From positions 1 to 64,000 of the IMG/VR virus record IMGVR_UViG_3300043449_002688: a DNA stretch of 64,000 nucleotides, one strand, 5' to 3'. The position numbers and the translations under genes are program-made. Origin of the DNA: a virus. Each line of letters begins with the position of its first letter. Position 1 is the stretch's first letter. The notes beneath the pieces were generated by a model that ran no database searches, had not been told where the DNA came from, and worked only from the letters and a program-made list of their open reading frames with translations. Below, piece after piece: positions 1,786 through 23,403 of this stretch.

Positions 1786-2511
1786 TTATTTTAACCTATT
1801 AGACATAGGTGCTTTTGTATTTTTTTGTTTTTGGGGCTTTGGTTTTTGAGGCTTTGGTTTTTGAGGTTTTGACTTTTTTGCTTTTTCATCATATGGATTA
1901 GGCTTAATAAGCATAGTAGTCGGCATAGATTCCGCAATTCTTGGAACCGCGATATGATCAATTATACCCCATTTAATAGCCTCATTTGGTTCTAAATACC
2001 AATCTGCATTTCGCATATCTTTCATTTTATTTTTAATTTTAGCTAATGGAATATTTGTATCTTTTGCAAAATTTACATATACCATTTCATTTAATCTTTC
2101 GAAAGATTTAGCATTTTCTGAAATATCTGCAGCTTTTCCATAAGAGACCCAAGAAGCTTCGTGGACCATCATTTGTGTGCTTGGTGCCGCAAAACGCATG
2201 CCTTTTGTTCCTGCTGCAAGCAAAAGAACGCCACATGACATAGCCATACCTAAAGCTATCGTGGCTACAGGCTTATGGGAAGATTTAATAATATCTCTCA
2301 TGGCGAGTAAAGAATGAGCATCTCCACCATAGCTATGAATATAAATAGGAATTACTGGAATTGCAGGATTTGCTTCCATATATTTAAATTGCGACAAAAA
2401 TGAAGCGGTAGTAGTATCTGTAAATTCAGATACCCAAATATAATCTTGACCTACCAAAGGTGGTAAATAAGAGTAGGCTCCTGGTTTTGCTAGTTTATTT
2501 TCTTGATTCAT
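1786..2511 (-). CDS. clpP: ClpP-family serine protease (paralog 1)
   Basis: YIHSYGG, GMAMSCG (Ser), MMVHEAS (His), ADWYL (Asp), EAIKWGIID; Lys/Pro-rich tail. Confidence 0.9.
   Translation of the reverse strand: MNQENKLAKPGAYSYLPPLVGQDYIWVSEFTDTTTASFLSQFKYMEANPAIPVIPIYIHSYGGDAHSLLAMRDIIKSSHKPVATIALGMAMSCGVLLLAAGTKGMRFAAPSTQMMVHEASWVSYGKAADISENAKSFERLNEMVYVNFAKDTNIPLAKIKNKMKDMRNADWYLEPNEAIKWGIIDHIAVPRIAESMPTTMLIKPNPYDEKAKKSKPQKPKPQKPKPQKQKNTKAPMSNRLK
1825..1870 (-). repeat. 15-nt tandem repeat encoding (KPKPQ)n in the ClpP tail
   Basis: KSKPQKPKPQKPKPQKQK. Confidence 0.8.
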
Positions 2512-2798
2512 GATTCCTCCGCTATTACTTCAACTGATTGATTATTTAACTTATGCTCTGAAACAATAATTTTTTCATATCCGCCATGCTTTCCGCAAAG
2601 GGGAGTAGCATAAAACGGCGTTTTTGATGAAATCGATAATGAAGCTGGATGGCCTACTCCACTAACAAAACATTCAATATTACCATTAGTTGACACTGTA
2701 AATCCGCCTATTAGCTGAAAATATTCATCATAAATAGGCCAAGATTTGTTTGCTTCTGCCCATCCTAATTTTAAAGAAAACCTATAGACCCTTCCCAT
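2508..2798 (-). CDS. Hypothetical protein
   Basis: ORF overlapping its neighbours in operon fashion. Confidence 0.6.
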   Translation of the reverse strand: MGRVYRFSLKLGWAEANKSWPIYDEYFQLIGGFTVSTNGNIECFVSGVGHPASLSISSKTPFYATPLCGKHGGYEKIIVSEHKLNNQSVEVIAEES

Positions 2799-3039
2799 TT
2801 GTTTCCTCTAAAAATTTTAAAACATTTTCAAGCTTATTTTGTTTTTCTTTATTAATCCAAAAGGCTACAAAAGAAAGAAAAAACACAAATACAGAAAAAG
2901 CCAAAACAGGCTCATTTAAAATTGCCTGAAAAAGCATTATAATAGTTTGCCACATCATAAGATAAAAATTTACGTTTGCAAAAAAACCGTAAAGCTTAAT
3001 TTTTCTTTTAATTTGACTTAAAGGATCAATTTGTTGCAT
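2782..3039 (-). CDS. Small membrane protein with two predicted TM helices
   Basis: Two hydrophobic stretches with charged termini. Confidence 0.6.
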   Translation of the reverse strand: MQQIDPLSQIKRKIKLYGFFANVNFYLMMWQTIIMLFQAILNEPVLAFSVFVFFLSFVAFWINKEKQNKLENVLKFLEETNGKGL

Positions 3040-3053
3040 TTACTTTCTCTTTA

Positions 3054-4106
3054 TTAAAGAACTTTTGTAATAACCATGTCATCTTCTTCGCCTAAGACTT
3101 TATCTGCTAGCCCTAATTTAACGGCTTCTTGAGCTGTATAAACCGTATCTTTAGAGCATTCTTTTTCCCAAAAAGAAGAATCTTTTTTAGATTTTTTAGA
3201 ATAAATATCGTACATCATTTGCCTTGCTCTTTTAGATTCTTTACTCCAAGATTCTAAAGATTTTGGTTGTCCATCAAATTCTTGCGTTCCATCGTGAATT
3301 AAAAACCTGCAATTAGCAGTCAACTGTCGTTGATCTCCAGCTTGAAAAATAATAGTTGCCGTTGAAGCTACCATTCCTGTTCCAATCATAATTTTAGGAC
3401 AATGACTATTAACTAAAGCATCATAAAAAGCCAATCCGCTGTAAAAGTCTCCGCCGTTTGACATTATTTTAACTGTTACAGGAGCAAATGGGTTAATTTT
3501 CTCCATTAGCTCTAGCCCTTTTAAATAATTAGACGCTGATTCCTCAGTAATTTCATTAAACATAAATATGGTTCTACCTTCAACGTCATATCCATTATGA
3601 AAAATTTGTTCAATCCTTAAGTTCCTAGACTCTTTAATAGAAGACAAAGCGTTAATTGTTTCTATTACAGACAATTTGTCTCCTCTTATAGAGCTACAAG
3701 TTGAACAACATGGAACCACATTATCTATACTATACCCTATTTTTTTATCTAATGAAAGTCTGTCTAATCCTACGCCAGACAAAGGTAAGTTCCCACCACA
3801 ATAAAAACATGGTTTACTGTTTAATTTGATATAATCTTCTTTAGAAAGATTCCATCTTATTTTTCTTAGTTTTGATTCAGTTTTACCTTTATTATATCTA
3901 TCATTAACTGTATAAATTCTATTTTTTTGATAAAGCTTTATAGTCTCTAAAGTTTGAGGATTAGTTTCTTTTTTATAGCAATTTACGCATTTTGGCCCTT
4001 GATATTTAACATTTTTTATTGTTTTACAAGAAATACATTCTTTAGGGCTTAAAGGTTTTGTTTCTACCGTAGAAATAACACTTGGTTTTTCTTTGGTTTT
4101 TGACAT
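3054..4106 (-). CDS. HNH-type (CxxC...DR...GY...NxVPCCxxC) domain fused to ClpP protease (paralog 2)
   Basis: Likely start MSKTKEK at 4106 after AAGGA; CFYC/GLDR/GYSIDNVVPCCSTC, then IMSNGG, GMVASTA, FLIHDG, KDTVY, EAVKLGLAD; no stop between the domains. Confidence 0.85.
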   Translation of the reverse strand: MSKTKEKPSVISTVETKPLSPKECISCKTIKNVKYQGPKCVNCYKKETNPQTLETIKLYQKNRIYTVNDRYNKGKTESKLRKIRWNLSKEDYIKLNSKPCFYCGGNLPLSGVGLDRLSLDKKIGYSIDNVVPCCSTCSSIRGDKLSVIETINALSSIKESRNLRIEQIFHNGYDVEGRTIFMFNEITEESASNYLKGLELMEKINPFAPVTVKIMSNGGDFYSGLAFYDALVNSHCPKIMIGTGMVASTATIIFQAGDQRQLTANCRFLIHDGTQEFDGQPKSLESWSKESKRARQMMYDIYSKKSKKDSSFWEKECSKDTVYTAQEAVKLGLADKVLGEEDDMVITKVL

Positions 4107-4108
4107 AA

Positions 4109-4687
4109 TTAAATCCTTATTGCCTTTTCTAAAACCTGAATGCATACAAGAGTGTCATATTTTGCGCCATGAAGCTTGGTTTGGTCTACGTTAACCCCAA
4201 GCCAATTTGCTATTGCTCCAAGACTTAAACTCTGCTCTCTTGGTATTTTACCTTGATTTTTTGCCTTTTTCAATATTTCTCTGGTATCTAATCTATCAGA
4301 TTGAAATACGTATTTATTCCAAACTGTTTTTGGAATTAAATTTAATGTAATAAATTCTTCATCAAAAGGAATATTTTGACCAATTAAGGTTAGTTTTTTA
4401 TTTCCATTTTGGGTATGTTTTTCTAATTTTTGAAATAAAAGTTTTGCTGCTTCAGCAGGAGTAATAGCTGTTTTTTGAAGTTCTTTTAGGTTTATTTTGT
4501 TAATATTTAATGCCTCTTGCGTTACTCTATATCCTACTGGATCAGTTAAAGCAAGATCTAATTCATCTATTATTTTAAATTTATCTTCGCTTACTTTAAC
4601 ACAAAAAGCAAAATAAGCTGTCAGCAAAGAATTATTTACTGGGCTTAATCCGCCAGTTTCGGTATCAAAGGCAAGATAGATTTCCAT
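4109..4687 (-). CDS. DEDDh 3'-5' exonuclease (DnaQ/epsilon-like)
   Basis: FDTETGG, GQNIPFD, LDT, HGAKYD motifs. Confidence 0.9.
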   Translation of the reverse strand: MEIYLAFDTETGGLSPVNNSLLTAYFAFCVKVSEDKFKIIDELDLALTDPVGYRVTQEALNINKINLKELQKTAITPAEAAKLLFQKLEKHTQNGNKKLTLIGQNIPFDEEFITLNLIPKTVWNKYVFQSDRLDTREILKKAKNQGKIPREQSLSLGAIANWLGVNVDQTKLHGAKYDTLVCIQVLEKAIRI

Positions 4688-4695
4688 TTAAATAT

Positions 4696-4827
4696 TTAAT
4701 CTTCTGCTTTTTTGTCTTTTTTGTCTTTTTTAGCTTTTAAATAAAAATAAGCAGCTAAAATAGGTATCCCAAAAGGTACAAAAACTGCAAAAGCAACTCC
4801 CAGTGTTTTTAAAACTTTTTTCTTCAT
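4696..4827 (-). CDS. 43-aa membrane peptide missed by the ORF track
   Basis: MKKKVLKTLGVAFAVFVPFGIPILAAYFYLKAKKDKKDKKAED fills the gap between genes. Confidence 0.6.
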   Translation of the reverse strand: MKKKVLKTLGVAFAVFVPFGIPILAAYFYLKAKKDKKDKKAED

Positions 4828-4842
4828 TTATACTTAACCTTT

Positions 4843-4863
4843 AAAAAAGCCCATCCTTGGGCT
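4843..4863 (-). terminator. Rho-independent terminator
   Basis: AGCCCA-AGGA-TGGGCT hairpin followed by a T run on the minus strand. Confidence 0.6.
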
Positions 4864-6210: not shown

Positions 6211-6855
6211 TTAAGGCAATTTTTTGCGTTTATTTAAAGCAGAATTTTGTTCTAGCCTATATTTTTTACCAGTATATATTTCATATAAGCTTTCAGAAAT
6301 TATATCTTTTTTGCTTAATTCAAGTACGTTTTCTGCAAGCATTTTTTTCCATTTATTAAGAATTTTTAAACTTTCTTTTTCTGGTACATTATGGACTTCT
6401 ATTTCAAAGAAAGTTTTTGCAGCAACTTTATATTGAGATTTGGGTACAGTTATTACATACCACACGATAGAAATCTCAGCTTTACCGTCTTGAATAAAAT
6501 ATATATCGCAGTCTTTGTATATAGAAAAAGAATGATTAAACCCCATTAAATTTAAGGCACGTTCTACTTCTGTTACTGGCATATCTTCTGTAATTTTAAT
6601 GTTTGCTTCATGCCGAACGGTAGTAGATTTATTAGATAGCCTTGCTTTTATTGTGATTTCGTTTAAATCAGAGCCTTGCCTATGTCTTGCCACTCTGCCA
6701 GAGTCAGATTCATAATAGTAATCAAAGCCATAAGCATGTTTTCCTTCAGCCTTATAGCTATGTTTTGAAAGAAATTCTGTTACTTTTTTATTATAAGCAG
6801 CCCTAGAAAGACTGCTTGCATCCCATTTAATTTCTATTTCTTTCAGTTTAGCCAT
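6211..6855 (-). CDS. CYTH / triphosphate tunnel metalloenzyme
   Basis: N-terminal EIEIK (ExExK), DYYY, RHR, ITIK, RHE, FFEIEV. Confidence 0.75.
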   Translation of the reverse strand: MAKLKEIEIKWDASSLSRAAYNKKVTEFLSKHSYKAEGKHAYGFDYYYESDSGRVARHRQGSDLNEITIKARLSNKSTTVRHEANIKITEDMPVTEVERALNLMGFNHSFSIYKDCDIYFIQDGKAEISIVWYVITVPKSQYKVAAKTFFEIEVHNVPEKESLKILNKWKKMLAENVLELSKKDIISESLYEIYTGKKYRLEQNSALNKRKKLP

Positions 6856-18127: not shown

Positions 18128-18731
18128 TTGAATCTCCATATTTTAATGCATAAAGCATTTTTTTGCAATATTCTGGATCTTCAGCGCCAGAATAATCTTT
18201 ATTCTCTATTTCATAATCATATGATTTTGTTGATAAAGATCTAATTTGTTGCAGCTCTGATTGCCTTTTTTGTACTGCCTCAAGCATTTGTTTAGATATT
18301 TTACGCTCTGTAGAATCTGCAATAACAGGTTTTTCAAAATTAGTTGGAAAAACAGGAATTGGATTTGATGGATCTGACTTTCTTGCTACTTTAATTTTCC
18401 CAATTTTTATAGCATCAAATAAACCATCTTTTTCTTCTTGACTAAGAAGATTGTTATTTAAAACAACGGTATGGCCATCAGTTGTAATTTCAACTATATC
18501 TCCATTATCTAATATATATCTTAAAAGATTTACTGTAGGAGAATGATCTTGCGTTAATTTTAGTATTGAAGAATTTTTAACATATTTTAAAACTTGATCA
18601 AATGTTTTAAACTTTTTAGCAATTTTTCCATTTGTATTATCAACAAAAATATCCACTGCCTTTCCGTCAGTTCTGATTTCGGCTAAAGGATAAGGGCTGT
18701 TGATTGATATAAGTTTGTAAACCTTAAACAT
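18120..18731 (-). CDS. Hypothetical protein in the head module
   Basis: GGAGG RBS; overlaps both neighbours. Confidence 0.7.
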   Translation of the reverse strand: MFKVYKLISINSPYPLAEIRTDGKAVDIFVDNTNGKIAKKFKTFDQVLKYVKNSSILKLTQDHSPTVNLLRYILDNGDIVEITTDGHTVVLNNNLLSQEEKDGLFDAIKIGKIKVARKSDPSNPIPVFPTNFEKPVIADSTERKISKQMLEAVQKRQSELQQIRSLSTKSYDYEIENKDYSGAEDPEYCKKMLYALKYGDSNE

Positions 18732-20418
18732 TTTTGCCTCCAAACATTACATCGCTGGAAACAAGCTGTCCGGCTTTTCTTAAAGAATAATTTTTATTAA
18801 TGTAATTTTGATAATTTTTTAAATTTTTAACAGCACCTTTTACTTTGTTTTTATCTAATCCAAGCTTTAACATGTGTTCAGCAAGTTTAGCTGGATCTAA
18901 AGAATTTAGCCATTTGTGAGCTTCTGGATGTGCAGGGTGATCTGCATATGCAGTTTCTTGAAAATAAAAACCATGGTCTGGATTTGCTGTTTCAGGATTC
19001 ATAGCTAAATCATTATCAATATGATATAAATTTCCTTTTTTGTCTAGCATAATATTTCCAGAATGTCTGTCTAGATGGCCTAAAATATGATCCATCATCA
19101 TAAGCTTATGTAAATCGCCTGATTTAAAATGCTTATCTAAATGTTTTTCTATTTGAGAATTGTCCATTTCAAGCGGCGTCTTTGCATCTGGAATATGAGC
19201 CATAGCCGAAAAATTGCCAGTATGAAGCTCTGGATGAGCAAACATTGCTGTTGTTGGAACATTTTTTCCTAACCCAAAATAGTCTTTTGCTAATCTATAA
19301 TAAGAAGAAGCATTATGGGCAGTGTCACCAAAATCTCCAAAACCTACGTCACCTGATTCTGGTTTTTTTACTAAAACTCGTGTACCTGCATCGTTTTGTA
19401 AATCATATAATGATCTAGAGAATTCTTTATGGGAAGGATGAAATTCTTTTGCAGGTTTAAACGAATGCTGCATATAAAGTCCTTCTATAAGCTCATTTTG
19501 GTCGTCATCGTGAGCTATATGTCCATGAGATTTTCCAATTCTTTTTAATTGAGGTTTTGGCAAACCTTTTTTTAAAGCAAGGTCTTCGGCTAAATCTACA
19601 AAAGTGTCAATATATTCATCTGATACTTCAGGTAAAGCAGCTTTTATTATTTCTTTTAAAGGTCTTTTTCTATTCCAATCTCTAACTGCTGCTTTTACTC
19701 TATTTTTTCTATTGTCAATATATTCACGGCTAAGGGCTGCACCACCAACTAAAGCAGAAGGAGCAATATTGCCCATTCCTGCAGTTAAAGTTTTATTTAG
19801 ATCTTCTAAATGTTTAAATAATGTATCTGGAGTTATTTTTTCTTCTTCGGTCAATATAGATGAATCTAGCTCTAATAGATTAATAGCTTCGTCTATATTT
19901 TTAGACATAAATTCTATAGATTTTTTTACTTCTTCTGATTTAGCATCTTCATAAAGATCTGCAATCGCTGTTTTATTGCAACTTCTTAAAGTCATAGCAA
20001 CTCTACGACCTACTGTTTGCTTAAGTACGTTGCCATCTCTTTCTAAGGTTGCTCCTTCAATAGAAAAACCAACTAGCATTTTTTCTTTTTTAGAAGCATA
20101 GTATCTTACCATGGCAGCTACTGCTATAGCGCCTGGATGCTCTTGATCATCAAATAGCTCGCCTATAATATAAACGTAAGGTTTTTTAACAAAATCCCAA
20201 TATTTTCTTTGCCTTTCGTTTTCGCAATCATCTTTTTTAAGGATTTTTTTAGCATAGATTACGGCACCAACAATATCTTCATGTTTATTGGAGTGCTCAA
20301 AGTTAAGGACACCTTTGCCTTCAACTAAATCAGATATGTCATGATTTTCGATAATTAAGATTTCTCCTGAACTATCTATATGTTCAGATGTAGCAATCCC
20401 ATCTACTTTTAATCCCAC
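18724..20418 (-). CDS. Prohead protease fused to a PI3K/PI4K/HipA-like kinase domain
   Basis: N-terminal GIATSEHIDSSGE, LNFEH, GFSIEG (HK97/S78-type); C-terminal VLVKK, DHILGHLDRHSGNIML, YHIDND. Confidence 0.85.
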   Translation of the reverse strand: MGLKVDGIATSEHIDSSGEILIIENHDISDLVEGKGVLNFEHSNKHEDIVGAVIYAKKILKKDDCENERQRKYWDFVKKPYVYIIGELFDDQEHPGAIAVAAMVRYYASKKEKMLVGFSIEGATLERDGNVLKQTVGRRVAMTLRSCNKTAIADLYEDAKSEEVKKSIEFMSKNIDEAINLLELDSSILTEEEKITPDTLFKHLEDLNKTLTAGMGNIAPSALVGGAALSREYIDNRKNRVKAAVRDWNRKRPLKEIIKAALPEVSDEYIDTFVDLAEDLALKKGLPKPQLKRIGKSHGHIAHDDDQNELIEGLYMQHSFKPAKEFHPSHKEFSRSLYDLQNDAGTRVLVKKPESGDVGFGDFGDTAHNASSYYRLAKDYFGLGKNVPTTAMFAHPELHTGNFSAMAHIPDAKTPLEMDNSQIEKHLDKHFKSGDLHKLMMMDHILGHLDRHSGNIMLDKKGNLYHIDNDLAMNPETANPDHGFYFQETAYADHPAHPEAHKWLNSLDPAKLAEHMLKLGLDKNKVKGAVKNLKNYQNYINKNYSLRKAGQLVSSDVMFGGKNV

Positions 20419-20486
20419 TGATTGATCCCCGTAATGCTTTATTTTGCATTATTTTTATGGATAATGCTGTACTTTTGTATAGTTAT

Positions 20487-20495
20487 AAGATTAGG
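20487..20495 (-). promoter_or_regulatory. Putative late promoter element CCTAATCTT
   Basis: Exact motif in the intergenic region upstream of the prohead protease. Confidence 0.6.
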
Positions 20496-20504
20496 GTAAT
20501 GTTT

Positions 20505-21359
20505 TTATTTTTCTAAATGATGGGTATGGTTTAAATTTAAGGTTAGATAATCTTCATAATCGGAAAAATTTGGTAATGGAGCGCTTTTAAGTTGCTCTGT
20601 TTTATTTAAAGCCCAATATTCCTTATAATAATCATATCCGAATTCTTTAAATTCTATTATTCCATTTGCAGTAAAACCAAAATTTGGCGGAACGAAACTT
20701 AAAGAGTGTCGGCAATTAGGGTGTAATGGAGCCTGATTAGGGGTTTTGTAATCCCATTCTTTTGGCCTAAAATATCCTTCTTTTACCTGAGATAATTTAT
20801 AAGGTTTAGGCAGTCTTATGTTGTTTGCGTCATGATACATTGCTTTGCAAAATTTACATATTTTATGATCTGTAACACCAAGAAAAACAACAGTAGGGTC
20901 TTTAACACCTATATCAGATGCCAATAAAGAAATGCCTTCTCTGCTGGCATACGCTTGTGTAATCCTAGTTTCATTAGCAACAAGCATGCTTACGTATTTT
21001 TCAGCTTTATCAAAATGATCTTTTACTGAATCTAAAGCATCTTTTTTAGTTTTTGCGTTTAAAATGTCGGCAATAATATGATTTTTAATTTTTAGCTTTT
21101 GAGCATCAAAATAATTATTTGTAATTTCGGCTAAATTTTCTACTGTTTCAGGGTCGGGGGTAGCGCCTGCTCCATATAGCATGTTAAGCGTGTATTTATA
21201 TATACCTTCAATTGTATAAAATGGGTCAGCTTTTTGTGCAATTTGAAAAAATATTCTTGGACCTTGAAAATAACGACCTAAAAGACTTGCTTTAGCTGAT
21301 TCAAACAGCATTTCAATGTGTTTTAAAATAAAATTTCGTTGAAATGGATTTAATCGCAT
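20505..21359 (-). CDS. MuF-like minor head morphogenesis protein
   Basis: NET, CKFC and PLHPNCRH motifs; located between portal and protease. Confidence 0.8.
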   Translation of the reverse strand: MRLNPFQRNFILKHIEMLFESAKASLLGRYFQGPRIFFQIAQKADPFYTIEGIYKYTLNMLYGAGATPDPETVENLAEITNNYFDAQKLKIKNHIIADILNAKTKKDALDSVKDHFDKAEKYVSMLVANETRITQAYASREGISLLASDIGVKDPTVVFLGVTDHKICKFCKAMYHDANNIRLPKPYKLSQVKEGYFRPKEWDYKTPNQAPLHPNCRHSLSFVPPNFGFTANGIIEFKEFGYDYYKEYWALNKTEQLKSAPLPNFSDYEDYLTLNLNHTHHLEK

Positions 21360-21375
21360 TTTTTACCAGCAATTT

Positions 21376-23403
21376 TTATTCTTTTTTATCTTTTAAAGAT
21401 TCCGCAATCTTGACAATTGCTTTTTTAGATTCTTTTTTCCAAGTATCCATATGCCGGTCTACCAATTGCTTATGTCTTTCTAATAATTGTTTAGAAATAG
21501 TATTATGATTGTCTTGGACATTTTTTTCTAAAAGTTGATAATTTACTGCAAGTTGCTTTTCATTTTTTTGCATTTCTGATTGATCTTGTTGCGATTCTTC
21601 TTGCATTTGACCTTCTTGTCCCATTCCAGCCGCCGCTTGCTGCTGCATCATCATTTGCTGTTGCATTTGCTGTTCTACCATCATTTGTTGTTGCATTGCC
21701 ATTTGAGCTTTTTGCAATAAAATTTGCTGATATTGAAACCAAAATGGATCTCGAACATATTGATATCTAGGGTCACTTGCAGCACCTTTTCTTCCAAAGA
21801 AATTCTCTAAAATTTCGCCCACAGTTAAATAAGTTCCCAAAATTTGTTGGAACTGTGGATTCATTGGAAAATCGCCGCCAATTTCCTTTGGAATTGGATT
21901 TTTTTCTACCTGTTCCATGACTTCATTGTAGGTCATATGAACAGCCATATCTTGTTGCAATCTAGTTGCTTCTTTTTCTGGAGAATCTTTTTCTAATCCA
22001 GCCAAAATAATTTGATGAGTTTTAGCTAATTCTTCATCAATATGAGGCAAAATATGTGTGTTTAAAAAATCCTGCAATTCATATATAAGCGGTCTTAATC
22101 CAACGTCTCTTGCTGCAGTTAATTTCCATTCATTATCTGATTCAGAAAGCGCTTGCGTATTTGTTCCGCGAGCAAGATGTGCATATCCTGGAAGTTCTTC
22201 TGGAGAAATTTGGAAAGAAGAAAGAATTGTTCTTGCGTTATTATCCAAAAGATATTGAAATTCTGCATCGCGTCCAGAAGTATCAATTGCTTGCCAAGCT
22301 AAATCGTCAGATGTGCCGACTCCAAAAACTGGCATTCTCCATGAATTTTGAACAGAATTTATAGATTGATGAAATTGTAATCGAATTCTTTGAACTGTTC
22401 CTTCATCAATGTCGTCCGATTTAAATACTAGCATTCCTCTAGCAGCACGACCATGTTGAAAATAAAGCTTATTGTGTACAGTGATATTAATATGCGTCGT
22501 GATTGCGTTTAAAGCTTGGTCAATTGGAGTAAGCGGATATCCATTGTATTCAACGTTTGTAGTTGGATACATATTATGAACTACTAATTCTTCCGCTGTA
22601 AAAGCTTGAACTGGCTTTCCTTCAATAGTTTGAACCCAGCGATATTCATCTTTTTTATATTTTTCAACATCAAATCTTTTATTTTTCATTTGCTGTAGCA
22701 TTCTTAATGCTTCAGCTCTTAAAGATTGATCTTTTTCAGATTGTGGTAAAATTTTATATATAGTACCTGCGTCTACAGCTCTAAACGCATACATATATTT
22801 TTTGCCGGTATTTTTATTTATACCCCAAATTCTTTCTACGGCAAAACGGCCATATCCTAATCCATCTCTTGTAATTAATTTAAATAATTGAGAAAGATTA
22901 ACTTTATCAGTTTCTTCGTCTTCTAAAGTTCCATGCCCGCAATTCCAAAGAACTTTTTTTACTTTATCTATTTTTTCTTGCAATGCTCTCTGTTCTTCTT
23001 CAGAACGAACAGCATTTTTGTCCATGTCTTGAAACTCAAATCCAACAGCAAATCGATGTGGTCTTGGGCGACCAAAAGCAGAGGCGTGATTTGATCTTGC
23101 TTGTAAAATTTGGCAAACTAATTCATCGCCTTGTGGACCTATAACTCTTTTAATAATATGATCTGGAGTTAATCCAGTTTTCATCCGATAAAAACCATGC
23201 ACTCCTGCAAAGTTTTTTTGCGGATCTACTTCAAATGCCATTCTTTCCATTTCTTGAGCAGAATGGGTTTGTAAAGACTTTAAAATCATTCCAAGAACAG
23301 AGTCTGGTTTAATATTAGAGTCCTGCTCTTCTTTTTTAAGAAGAGCGTCGGCATTTGGATCTATAGCTATTGCTGTTTTCTTTTTTGGTTTTTTATCGTC
23401 CAT
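21376..23403 (-). CDS. Portal protein
   Basis: VDAGTI, GYPLTP, YFQHGRAARG, DAEFQ, FQISPEEL, GLRPL; Q/M-rich tail; position after terminase. Confidence 0.9.
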   Translation of the reverse strand: MDDKKPKKKTAIAIDPNADALLKKEEQDSNIKPDSVLGMILKSLQTHSAQEMERMAFEVDPQKNFAGVHGFYRMKTGLTPDHIIKRVIGPQGDELVCQILQARSNHASAFGRPRPHRFAVGFEFQDMDKNAVRSEEEQRALQEKIDKVKKVLWNCGHGTLEDEETDKVNLSQLFKLITRDGLGYGRFAVERIWGINKNTGKKYMYAFRAVDAGTIYKILPQSEKDQSLRAEALRMLQQMKNKRFDVEKYKKDEYRWVQTIEGKPVQAFTAEELVVHNMYPTTNVEYNGYPLTPIDQALNAITTHINITVHNKLYFQHGRAARGMLVFKSDDIDEGTVQRIRLQFHQSINSVQNSWRMPVFGVGTSDDLAWQAIDTSGRDAEFQYLLDNNARTILSSFQISPEELPGYAHLARGTNTQALSESDNEWKLTAARDVGLRPLIYELQDFLNTHILPHIDEELAKTHQIILAGLEKDSPEKEATRLQQDMAVHMTYNEVMEQVEKNPIPKEIGGDFPMNPQFQQILGTYLTVGEILENFFGRKGAASDPRYQYVRDPFWFQYQQILLQKAQMAMQQQMMVEQQMQQQMMMQQQAAAGMGQEGQMQEESQQDQSEMQKNEKQLAVNYQLLEKNVQDNHNTISKQLLERHKQLVDRHMDTWKKESKKAIVKIAESLKDKKE

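Follow-up and report, generated by a model that had tools for sequence, protein, structure and literature searches.

ClpP is functionally most sensitive at its N-terminus, which gates the pore and contacts the unfoldase, and in the canonical enzyme this is the work of N-terminal axial loops, which also couple the barrel to ClpX or ClpA. Many ClpPs remove short N-terminal propeptides. In other proteases the catalytic part is joined to a DNA-binding module, and the DNA-associated enzymes Lon and SPRTN/Wss1 carry out proteolysis on DNA. Non-virion ClpP of phages is mentioned in a survey of jumbo phages only as a likely anti-host protease (PMC7824862). The Clp protease-like protein of Myxococcus phage Mx1 (WNM70285.1, 187 aa) is non-structural and its gene follows the primase-helicase gene. 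On the side of the nucleases, R.PacI (PDB 3ldy/3m7k) is a free-standing, homodimeric restriction enzyme of 142 aa. It is a His-Me finger without the catalytic His, whose role is taken by a loop Tyr before the helix (PMC5714182, PMC4081073); its metal ion is held by one Asp and one Asn (PMC4081073), and Jablonska et al. 2017 placed it in group 20 of the His-Me fingers (PMC5714182).

In a large, uncultured freshwater phage, whose genome is a 154.8-kb IMG/VR record that is 96% complete, a single protein combines a zinc ribbon and an HNH-like domain with a complete ClpP domain. Its gene lies on the minus strand of the window, that is, the whole stretch of 64,000 nucleotides analysed here; the stretch is present in only one DNA sequencing run, probably that of the sample of origin, and no RNA run is listed. 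The reading of the ORF gives one uninterrupted frame with a product of 350 aa that begins MSKTKEKPSVISTVET, organised as follows:

3054-4106, minus strand: whole CDS, 350 aa plus stop (stop at 3054-3056), a PacI-type HNH domain fused to a ClpP-like protease
4114-4118, minus strand: ribosome-binding site AAGGA, 7 nt before the ATG at 4104-4106 and within the end of the exonuclease gene (sequence reading)
4044-4106, minus strand: residues 1-21, leader, variable and of low confidence (pLDDT 40-55; homologue alignment, model)
3963-4043, minus strand: residues 22-48, zinc ribbon C24xxC27...C40xxC43, kept throughout the fused family (homologue alignment)
3819-3962, minus strand: residues 49-96, helical region preceding the nuclease core, also found in stand-alone members
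3669-3818, minus strand: residues 97-146, PacI-type beta-beta-alpha-metal core (profile, structure match, alignment)
3576-3668, minus strand: residues 147-177, long helix that closes the nuclease domain and enters the ClpP core, the junction (model)
3087-3575, minus strand: residues 178-340, ClpP fold (Pfam, structure match, alignment)
3363-3365, minus strand: catalytic Ser248
3294-3296, minus strand: catalytic His271
3147-3149, minus strand: catalytic Asp320

The gene upstream of the fusion encodes a DnaQ-like 3'-5' exonuclease (4109-4687; Pfam RNase_T, PHROG 'DNA polymerase exonuclease subunit'). Only 2 nt separate its stop codon from the fusion ATG, and the ribosome-binding site of the fusion is inside the exonuclease gene; hence, both genes are translationally coupled. 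The gene caller of the protein database starts the protein at an upstream ATG at 4145 (363 aa), and the homologues begin at or near MSK. Matches to homologues reach E 1e-122, so the ORF exceeds what chance would produce. The preliminary description, made from the letters, had placed an HNH-type domain and a ClpP protease in a single frame, with neither a stop codon nor an internal Met ahead of the protease and with no intein motif, and in all these points it was borne out. The single frame has its own ribosome-binding site; in the window it runs without a stop codon from the nuclease domain into the ClpP domain, and the first in-frame ATG, GTG or TTG after the codon of residue 1 is that of Met185. 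Met185 itself lies inside the first ClpP strand, is non-conserved and is preceded by a Shine-Dalgarno-like box that is badly spaced. Pfam scans of the fusion protein contained no intein or Hint family, and the domain is N-terminal rather than internal. The GC3 of the two halves (0.17 versus 0.22) falls inside the range of the neighbouring genes; thus, base composition marks neither half as foreign. The exonuclease gene and a strong terminator-like hairpin (4848-4863) also flank an ORF of 43 aa (4695-4826, minus strand). Its product has a hydrophobic core and a tail rich in Lys (MKKKVLKTLGVAF...), and its ATG overlaps a TATAAATG word.

The N-terminal domain is, as judged from profiles and conserved residues, of the HNH type, and specifically of the PacI-type His-less branch, which refines an earlier assignment to HNH at large. 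Residues 1-175 matched no model of Pfam or NCBIfam, permissive thresholds included (Pfam to E 10). They do match, at about 1e-11, PHROG families annotated as HNH endonuclease or endonuclease VII, and relatives of the domain reach Pfam HNH_5/HNH below threshold (E 0.01). It is not a canonical HNH domain (PF01844, PF14279 and related), since no such profile is matched and the position of the His is occupied by Arg. The signature of 23 aligned family members reads C-x-Y-C...G-x-G-L-D-R-x-D...G-Y...N-V-x-P-C-C-x-x-C-N-x-I-(R/K); none of the 23 members scanned gave a Pfam model above cut-off, and the profile built from them matches PacI (3ldy) at E 3.9e-7 with an alignment that spans the whole core (GVDRSDSFEGYSPQN..LACFICNRIK). 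Structure comparison may point in the same direction: PacI was the top structure among 48,161 chains for the AlphaFold model of the domain (pLDDT 80), with Z 6.8 over 94 residues, under the tool's safe level of 8, and the next row had Z 4.8. Foldseek of the domain against the PDB gave nothing significant, with PacI first at E 0.086, and phmmer with the single N-domain sequence against the PDB gave weak HNH matches.

The core residues of the domain are C100xxC103, D115-R116, the loop tyrosine Y125, N129, C133/C134..C137 and Ser138, in the motifs C100FYC103, GLDR (D115, R116), GY (Y125) and PCC..C (C133, C134, C137). The motif shared with PacI is CxYC...(G)xDR...GY...N...C..CN.I(K/R); both have Arg at the usual catalytic His, a conserved loop Tyr and Cys4 zinc sites. 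The fusion domain differs from PacI by its extra N-terminal zinc ribbon, by a Ser for the metal-ligand Asn in the window phage and by an identity of only about 18-20%, and it is welded to a protease whereas PacI is free-standing. The Arg at the His position could be read as the mark of a dead nuclease. This reading was rejected because PacI likewise lacks the catalytic His, and Arg116 therefore marks the PacI branch. In the alignment to the DR and EGY of PacI, Arg116 is present in 205 of 211 domain copies and Tyr125 in every one; Asp115 and the four zinc Cys are invariant or nearly so across the same 211 copies. Within the fused proteins conservation is complete, as Asp115, Arg116, Tyr125, Asn129 and the Cys ligands are found in 21/21. 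The exception is position 138, the Asn of the CN pair and second metal ligand of PacI, which had already been noticed to read CS here: it is Asn in 18 of the 21 fused relatives and Ser in the window protein and two other fused members. A residue other than Asn at this position occurs in 3/21 fused versus 3/190 other copies (Fisher p 0.014).

The second half of the protein is a complete ClpP with Ser, His and Asp, as first described. Residues 176-339 match Pfam CLP_protease (PF00574) at E 2.7e-31 and 109.3 bits (cut-off 20.2), and Ser248, His271 and Asp320 are kept in all the homologues that cover those positions. The AlphaFold model of the whole protein superimposes on solved ClpPs with TM 0.78-0.89, rmsd of about 2-3.8 A and Foldseek E 1e-15, at 22-30% identity; the scores of the NCBIfam ClpP equivalogs are far under their cut-offs. 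The whole fold and the Ser-His-Asp triad are thus common to the fusion and to bacterial ClpP (M. tuberculosis ClpP1P2, E. coli; PF00574, MEROPS S14). The N-terminus is where they part: bacterial ClpP has about 29 N-terminal residues that form the axial loops and the first helix, whereas the fusion has there a folded domain of 175 aa. The alignment to a canonical phage-borne ClpP begins at residue 30 of the latter, the core of the fusion starts at Arg178, and the sequence upstream of this core is a helix of the nuclease domain; sequence comparison found no counterpart of the roughly 29 N-terminal residues in the fusion. On the sequence evidence, the nuclease domain takes the place of the axial N-terminal loops of ClpP. 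Unlike the bacterial ClpP systems, the fusion phage encodes no cognate ATPase, as no ClpX-type AAA_2 ATPase is encoded in its genome.

The ClpP part is also matched by phage ClpP-type head maturation proteases (NF045542, phrog_94/2976) at E 1e-20 to 1e-27, although the NF045542 score of 78.5 bits is below the NCBIfam cut-off of 120. In contrast to these proteases, the fusion gene is outside the head module, has no scaffold or capsid fusion and follows an exonuclease gene. Another head-protease candidate (phrog_1028) adjoins the genes of the portal and the minor head protein (18724-23403); therefore, the ClpP-like genes are not in the head-protease position. A reading as head-protease cargo was rejected, the head-protease motif [LM]-x-K-[SAG] of the phage being absent from the fusion protein.

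Between the two domains there is, in the model, essentially no linker. Stand-alone members of the domain family end a few residues past the position of Arg161 (approximately residue 165), within about 12 residues of the ClpP core at 178, and residues 147-171 are modelled as one helix that joins the nuclease domain and the ClpP core. No conserved junction or cleavage motif is visible in the alignment of the homologues, and several of these have a Met about 16 residues ahead of the ClpP core, perhaps an ancestral start.

The preliminary description had proposed a search for orthologs with and without the insert, and such a search was productive. A first round gave 16 proteins of the same two-domain layout, which match about 91% of the length at 37-58% identity and stem from JGI, ENA and Logan assemblies, with contigs of up to 160 kb; five further, more distant members confirmed with Pfam brought the number of fused homologues to 21. 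By sequence, then, the fusion is conserved in about twenty related phages. At the place of the leader some relatives have nothing, others additional zinc ribbons and others helical repeats of about 95 aa. The latter were observed in P0007 and P0012 (L006:5710-6975), where the approximately 95 extra N-terminal residues form two helical repeats as on phage homing endonucleases, and three other fused members have an additional CxxC...CxxC ribbon.

The identities of the halves (52/51, 45/53 and 42/46% in relatives) are nearly equal, so both halves diverge together and at similar rates. The pairwise identities of the two halves are correlated (Mantel r 0.55, a value reached in 20 of 5000 permutations), with means of 54% for the nuclease domain versus 61% for the protease. 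A maximum-likelihood tree of 71 N-domains unites 20 of the 21 that are fused to ClpP in one clade (SH-aLRT 92) and places the remaining one beside it without resolution. In the tree of ClpP domains the fused proteins group together with weak support (SH-aLRT 60). Their closest neighbours there are the unfused ClpP-like proteins of phage Mx1 and contig L008, with the second ClpP paralogue of the window and canonical phage-borne ClpP further out. The Mx1 protein, which is 34% identical to the ClpP half and belongs to the same clade, is one of the two closest unfused relatives, and it has no N-terminal nuclease domain, unlike the fusion. All ClpPs above about 37% identity carry the domain and the closest unfused ones are 25-34% identical; no unfused ClpP closer than 34% was found, a further search with the ClpP half only included. 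A scan with the window's ClpP half as a single protein gave no match. These results point to one old fusion that has since been inherited, and neither to an assembly error nor to an endonuclease now moving in and out. A stop codon or frameshift between the domains, or a ClpP translated from an internal start, would leave the fusion an artefact of two adjacent genes joined by sequencing or assembly error. This was looked for, and its probability is close to negligible: the frame is uninterrupted at the DNA level in three IMG/VR contigs (L004, L006, L007), the same frame is found in more than 15 proteins in all, in independent contigs from different samples, and there is no conserved internal start and none that is usable in the window.

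The relative L004 has a DnaB-like helicase gene 2 kb upstream of the fusion gene; beyond such points the surroundings of the gene are not conserved between relatives. The gene directly after the fusion encodes in the window an 85-aa protein with membrane-like N-terminal helices (2782-3039, minus strand), and in L004 a protein of 166 aa, likewise with membrane-like N-terminal helices and with a CxxC motif (L004:6957-7457); tblastn of the 85-aa protein against L004 gave no match. One of the few genes common to the vicinity of the fusion in both phages encodes a 214-aa protein without family match (window 6211-6855, minus strand), with a counterpart at 7457-8029 of L004 (29% identity, E 8e-15). 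The second ClpP paralogue of the window (1786-2511, minus strand) has 241 aa, is 26% identical to the fused ClpP half and has a Lys/Pro/Gln-rich repeat tail (KPQKPKPQKPKPQKQK). Its orthologue (46%) is 100 kb away in the relative G002, and none was found in the relative G001 (96% complete). An obligate hetero-complex of the ClpP1/ClpP2 type with this neighbouring paralogue is unlikely, as the partner is so patchy and distant in the relatives.

The family to which the N-terminal domain belongs extends well beyond the fusion. An HMMER search of 1.84 billion cluster representatives gave 9,933 relatives at E <=0.001 and 1,641 at <=1e-10; among the best 150 of the 9,933, about half are small stand-alone proteins of 110-210 aa. 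P0022 is a stand-alone relative of 177 aa on a 154.9-kb contig, which a sequence scan did not find in IMG/VR. Two tandem copies of the domain are present in 48 of the 166 family proteins retrieved, and these proteins may be single-chain versions of the PacI homodimer. In some relatives the domain is C-terminal, behind zinc fingers, and one of them is the 382-aa endonuclease in the split dnaE intein of the window phage. The likeness between this endonuclease and the N-terminal domain, claimed at first sight of the sequence, is real though weak (27% over 71 aa, pairwise E 1e-5). The same PacI-type domain was observed in other metagenomic proteins (P0104, P0106, P0111, P0115, P0129, P0028, P0103, P0124). 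It is N-terminal and nearly without linker on a dTDP-4-dehydrorhamnose 3,5-epimerase, a nucleoside 2-deoxyribosyltransferase and a dATP/dGTP diphosphohydrolase, and is likewise present in Mom-family and DruA-containing proteins. These recurrent fusions to enzymes may reflect either a DNA-targeting module of general use or a selfish element that is prone to fusion.

What the fusion does can be approached from these data only in conditional terms. The reading that is preferred here, tentatively and with somewhat less than even confidence, is an ATPase-independent protease with a domesticated crown that binds or cuts DNA, stably inherited from one fusion. An ancestral phage ClpP-like protease, unfused as in Mx1, would have been joined at its N-terminus, in a single ancient event, to a PacI-type HNH module made of the zinc ribbon and the His-less core. 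The module would replace the axial loops of canonical ClpP, and with them the pore gate and the coupling to ClpX/ClpA, and a clade of Mx1-like freshwater phages would have inherited the outcome as one stable two-domain protein. If the usual ring forms, each axial face would bear a crown of seven nuclease-derived domains. The crown would bind DNA, and perhaps cut it in most members, so as to place or gate the protease near DNA-bound proteins; the working mode would be that of a DNA-anchored protease that needs no AAA+ partner, and the stage of action may be replication or host takeover. The lack of a ClpX-type ATPase in the genome, the separate head-protease candidate by the portal, the coupling of the gene to an exonuclease gene and its position near a DnaB-like helicase gene in L004 are consistent with such a crown, as is the enrichment of Asn138 loss among the fused copies. 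The fit is less good in other respects. The neighbourhood is unconserved between relatives and says little on function, the support of the trees is moderate, the homodimer of PacI is awkward on a seven-fold ring, and the N-terminal position of the same domain on several unrelated phage enzymes also fits a promiscuous selfish element. Moreover, 18 of the 21 members have the full catalytic set of PacI, so a working nuclease is possible rather than a mere anchor. This last point leads to an unlikely but sizeable alternative, a bifunctional enzyme in which the PacI-type domain cuts the DNA of the host or of competitor phages by means of Tyr125, Asp115 and a metal ion, and the ClpP part mainly oligomerises the nuclease domains, as the PacI dimer does, and/or degrades proteins independently. 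The Asp, the Tyr and Asn129 are invariant in all 211 domain copies or nearly all of them, the fused ones included, PacI is an active enzyme with the same His-less site (PMC5714182, PMC4081073), the tandem copies suggest that the domain works in pairs, and a domain of the same type ends the endonuclease gene in the split dnaE intein of the window phage. A seven-fold ring, however, would pair such domains unevenly, and in the window phage itself the metal-ligand Asn is a Ser, a loss that is enriched in the fused clade; DNA binding is therefore more likely than cutting there, to judge from this residue. Since most members keep the PacI catalytic set and the window phage has lost the metal-ligand Asn, the split between a DNA-anchored crown and an active bifunctional nuclease is uncertain.

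Two further explanations are less likely than the domesticated crown. The N-terminal domain might be a giant propeptide that ClpP cuts off autocatalytically, which would free the nuclease and unblock the pore. This is improbable, even if it draws on the propeptide removal known for many ClpPs, by analogy, and on the Met that precedes the ClpP core in several homologues: the modelled helix leaves no flexible linker, a conserved junction motif is not visible, the [LM]-x-K-[SAG] motif is absent and a folded zinc domain could not be expected to reach the chamber unless unfolded. Alternatively, a free-standing homing endonuclease gene might have landed upstream of clpP and lost its stop codon, a selfish passenger of no benefit to the phage that persists because its loss would damage clpP. 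The family is elsewhere homing-endonuclease-like, with many small stand-alone phage copies, some with typical DNA-binding repeats, and with one member between the split-intein halves of the window phage, and N-terminal fusions to several unrelated enzymes recur. But a useless domain should decay, and this one is conserved about as well as the protease: every structural residue and almost every catalytic one is invariant in the 21 members; its origin is single, empty alleles were not found, and the patchy presence among close clpP alleles that is typical of homing is not seen. A purely selfish passenger is hence just as improbable as release by self-cleavage, if not slightly more so. The original proposal of a mobile endonuclease that rides in the propeptide and is released by autoprocessing found no positive support, as neither presence/absence polymorphism nor a flexible linker nor a conserved cleavage motif was found. 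The other original proposal, that of a domesticated domain by which the protease is tethered or gated, agrees better with the data, because the fusion is old and has essentially one origin, its halves co-diverge, no close allele without the insert was found, and the domain abuts the ClpP core at the site of the axial loops almost without linker.

Neither an HNH-ClpP fusion nor the Mx1 Clp protein is described in the papers that a literature search by term brought up. The design is real and apparently undescribed, a new combination of known components, the ClpP protease and the PacI-type HNH domain. In the protein database the fused proteins are labelled with the Pfam of ClpP only, which may explain why it went unnoticed. 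The analysis also reveals a very large family of PacI-type His-less HNH domains in phages (about 9,900 cluster representatives at E <=0.001), and the additional fusions to nucleotide-pool and DNA-modification enzymes make the domain a candidate general DNA-targeting or selfish module. The fusion protein is small and soluble-looking, and hence easily testable. In a bolder form of the DNA-anchored protease, which must be regarded as rather doubtful, the PacI-derived ring would dock the ClpP barrel on specific DNA sites or structures and replace both the AAA+ partner and the axial gate. If so, DNA-bound proteins of the host nucleoid, of restriction or of replication, or initiators of the phage, would be fed into the chamber, and the fusion would be a phage counterpart of the DNA-dependent proteolysis of Lon and SPRTN, built from ClpP and a retired restriction or homing nuclease. 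The concept is shared with Lon and SPRTN/Wss1, while the folds and catalytic types are unrelated, so that the analogy is functional only. More generally, a natural family that has exchanged the N-terminus of ClpP for a folded zinc nuclease domain, and that comes without an ATPase gene of its own, would be an example of another means by which the barrel is controlled or targeted.
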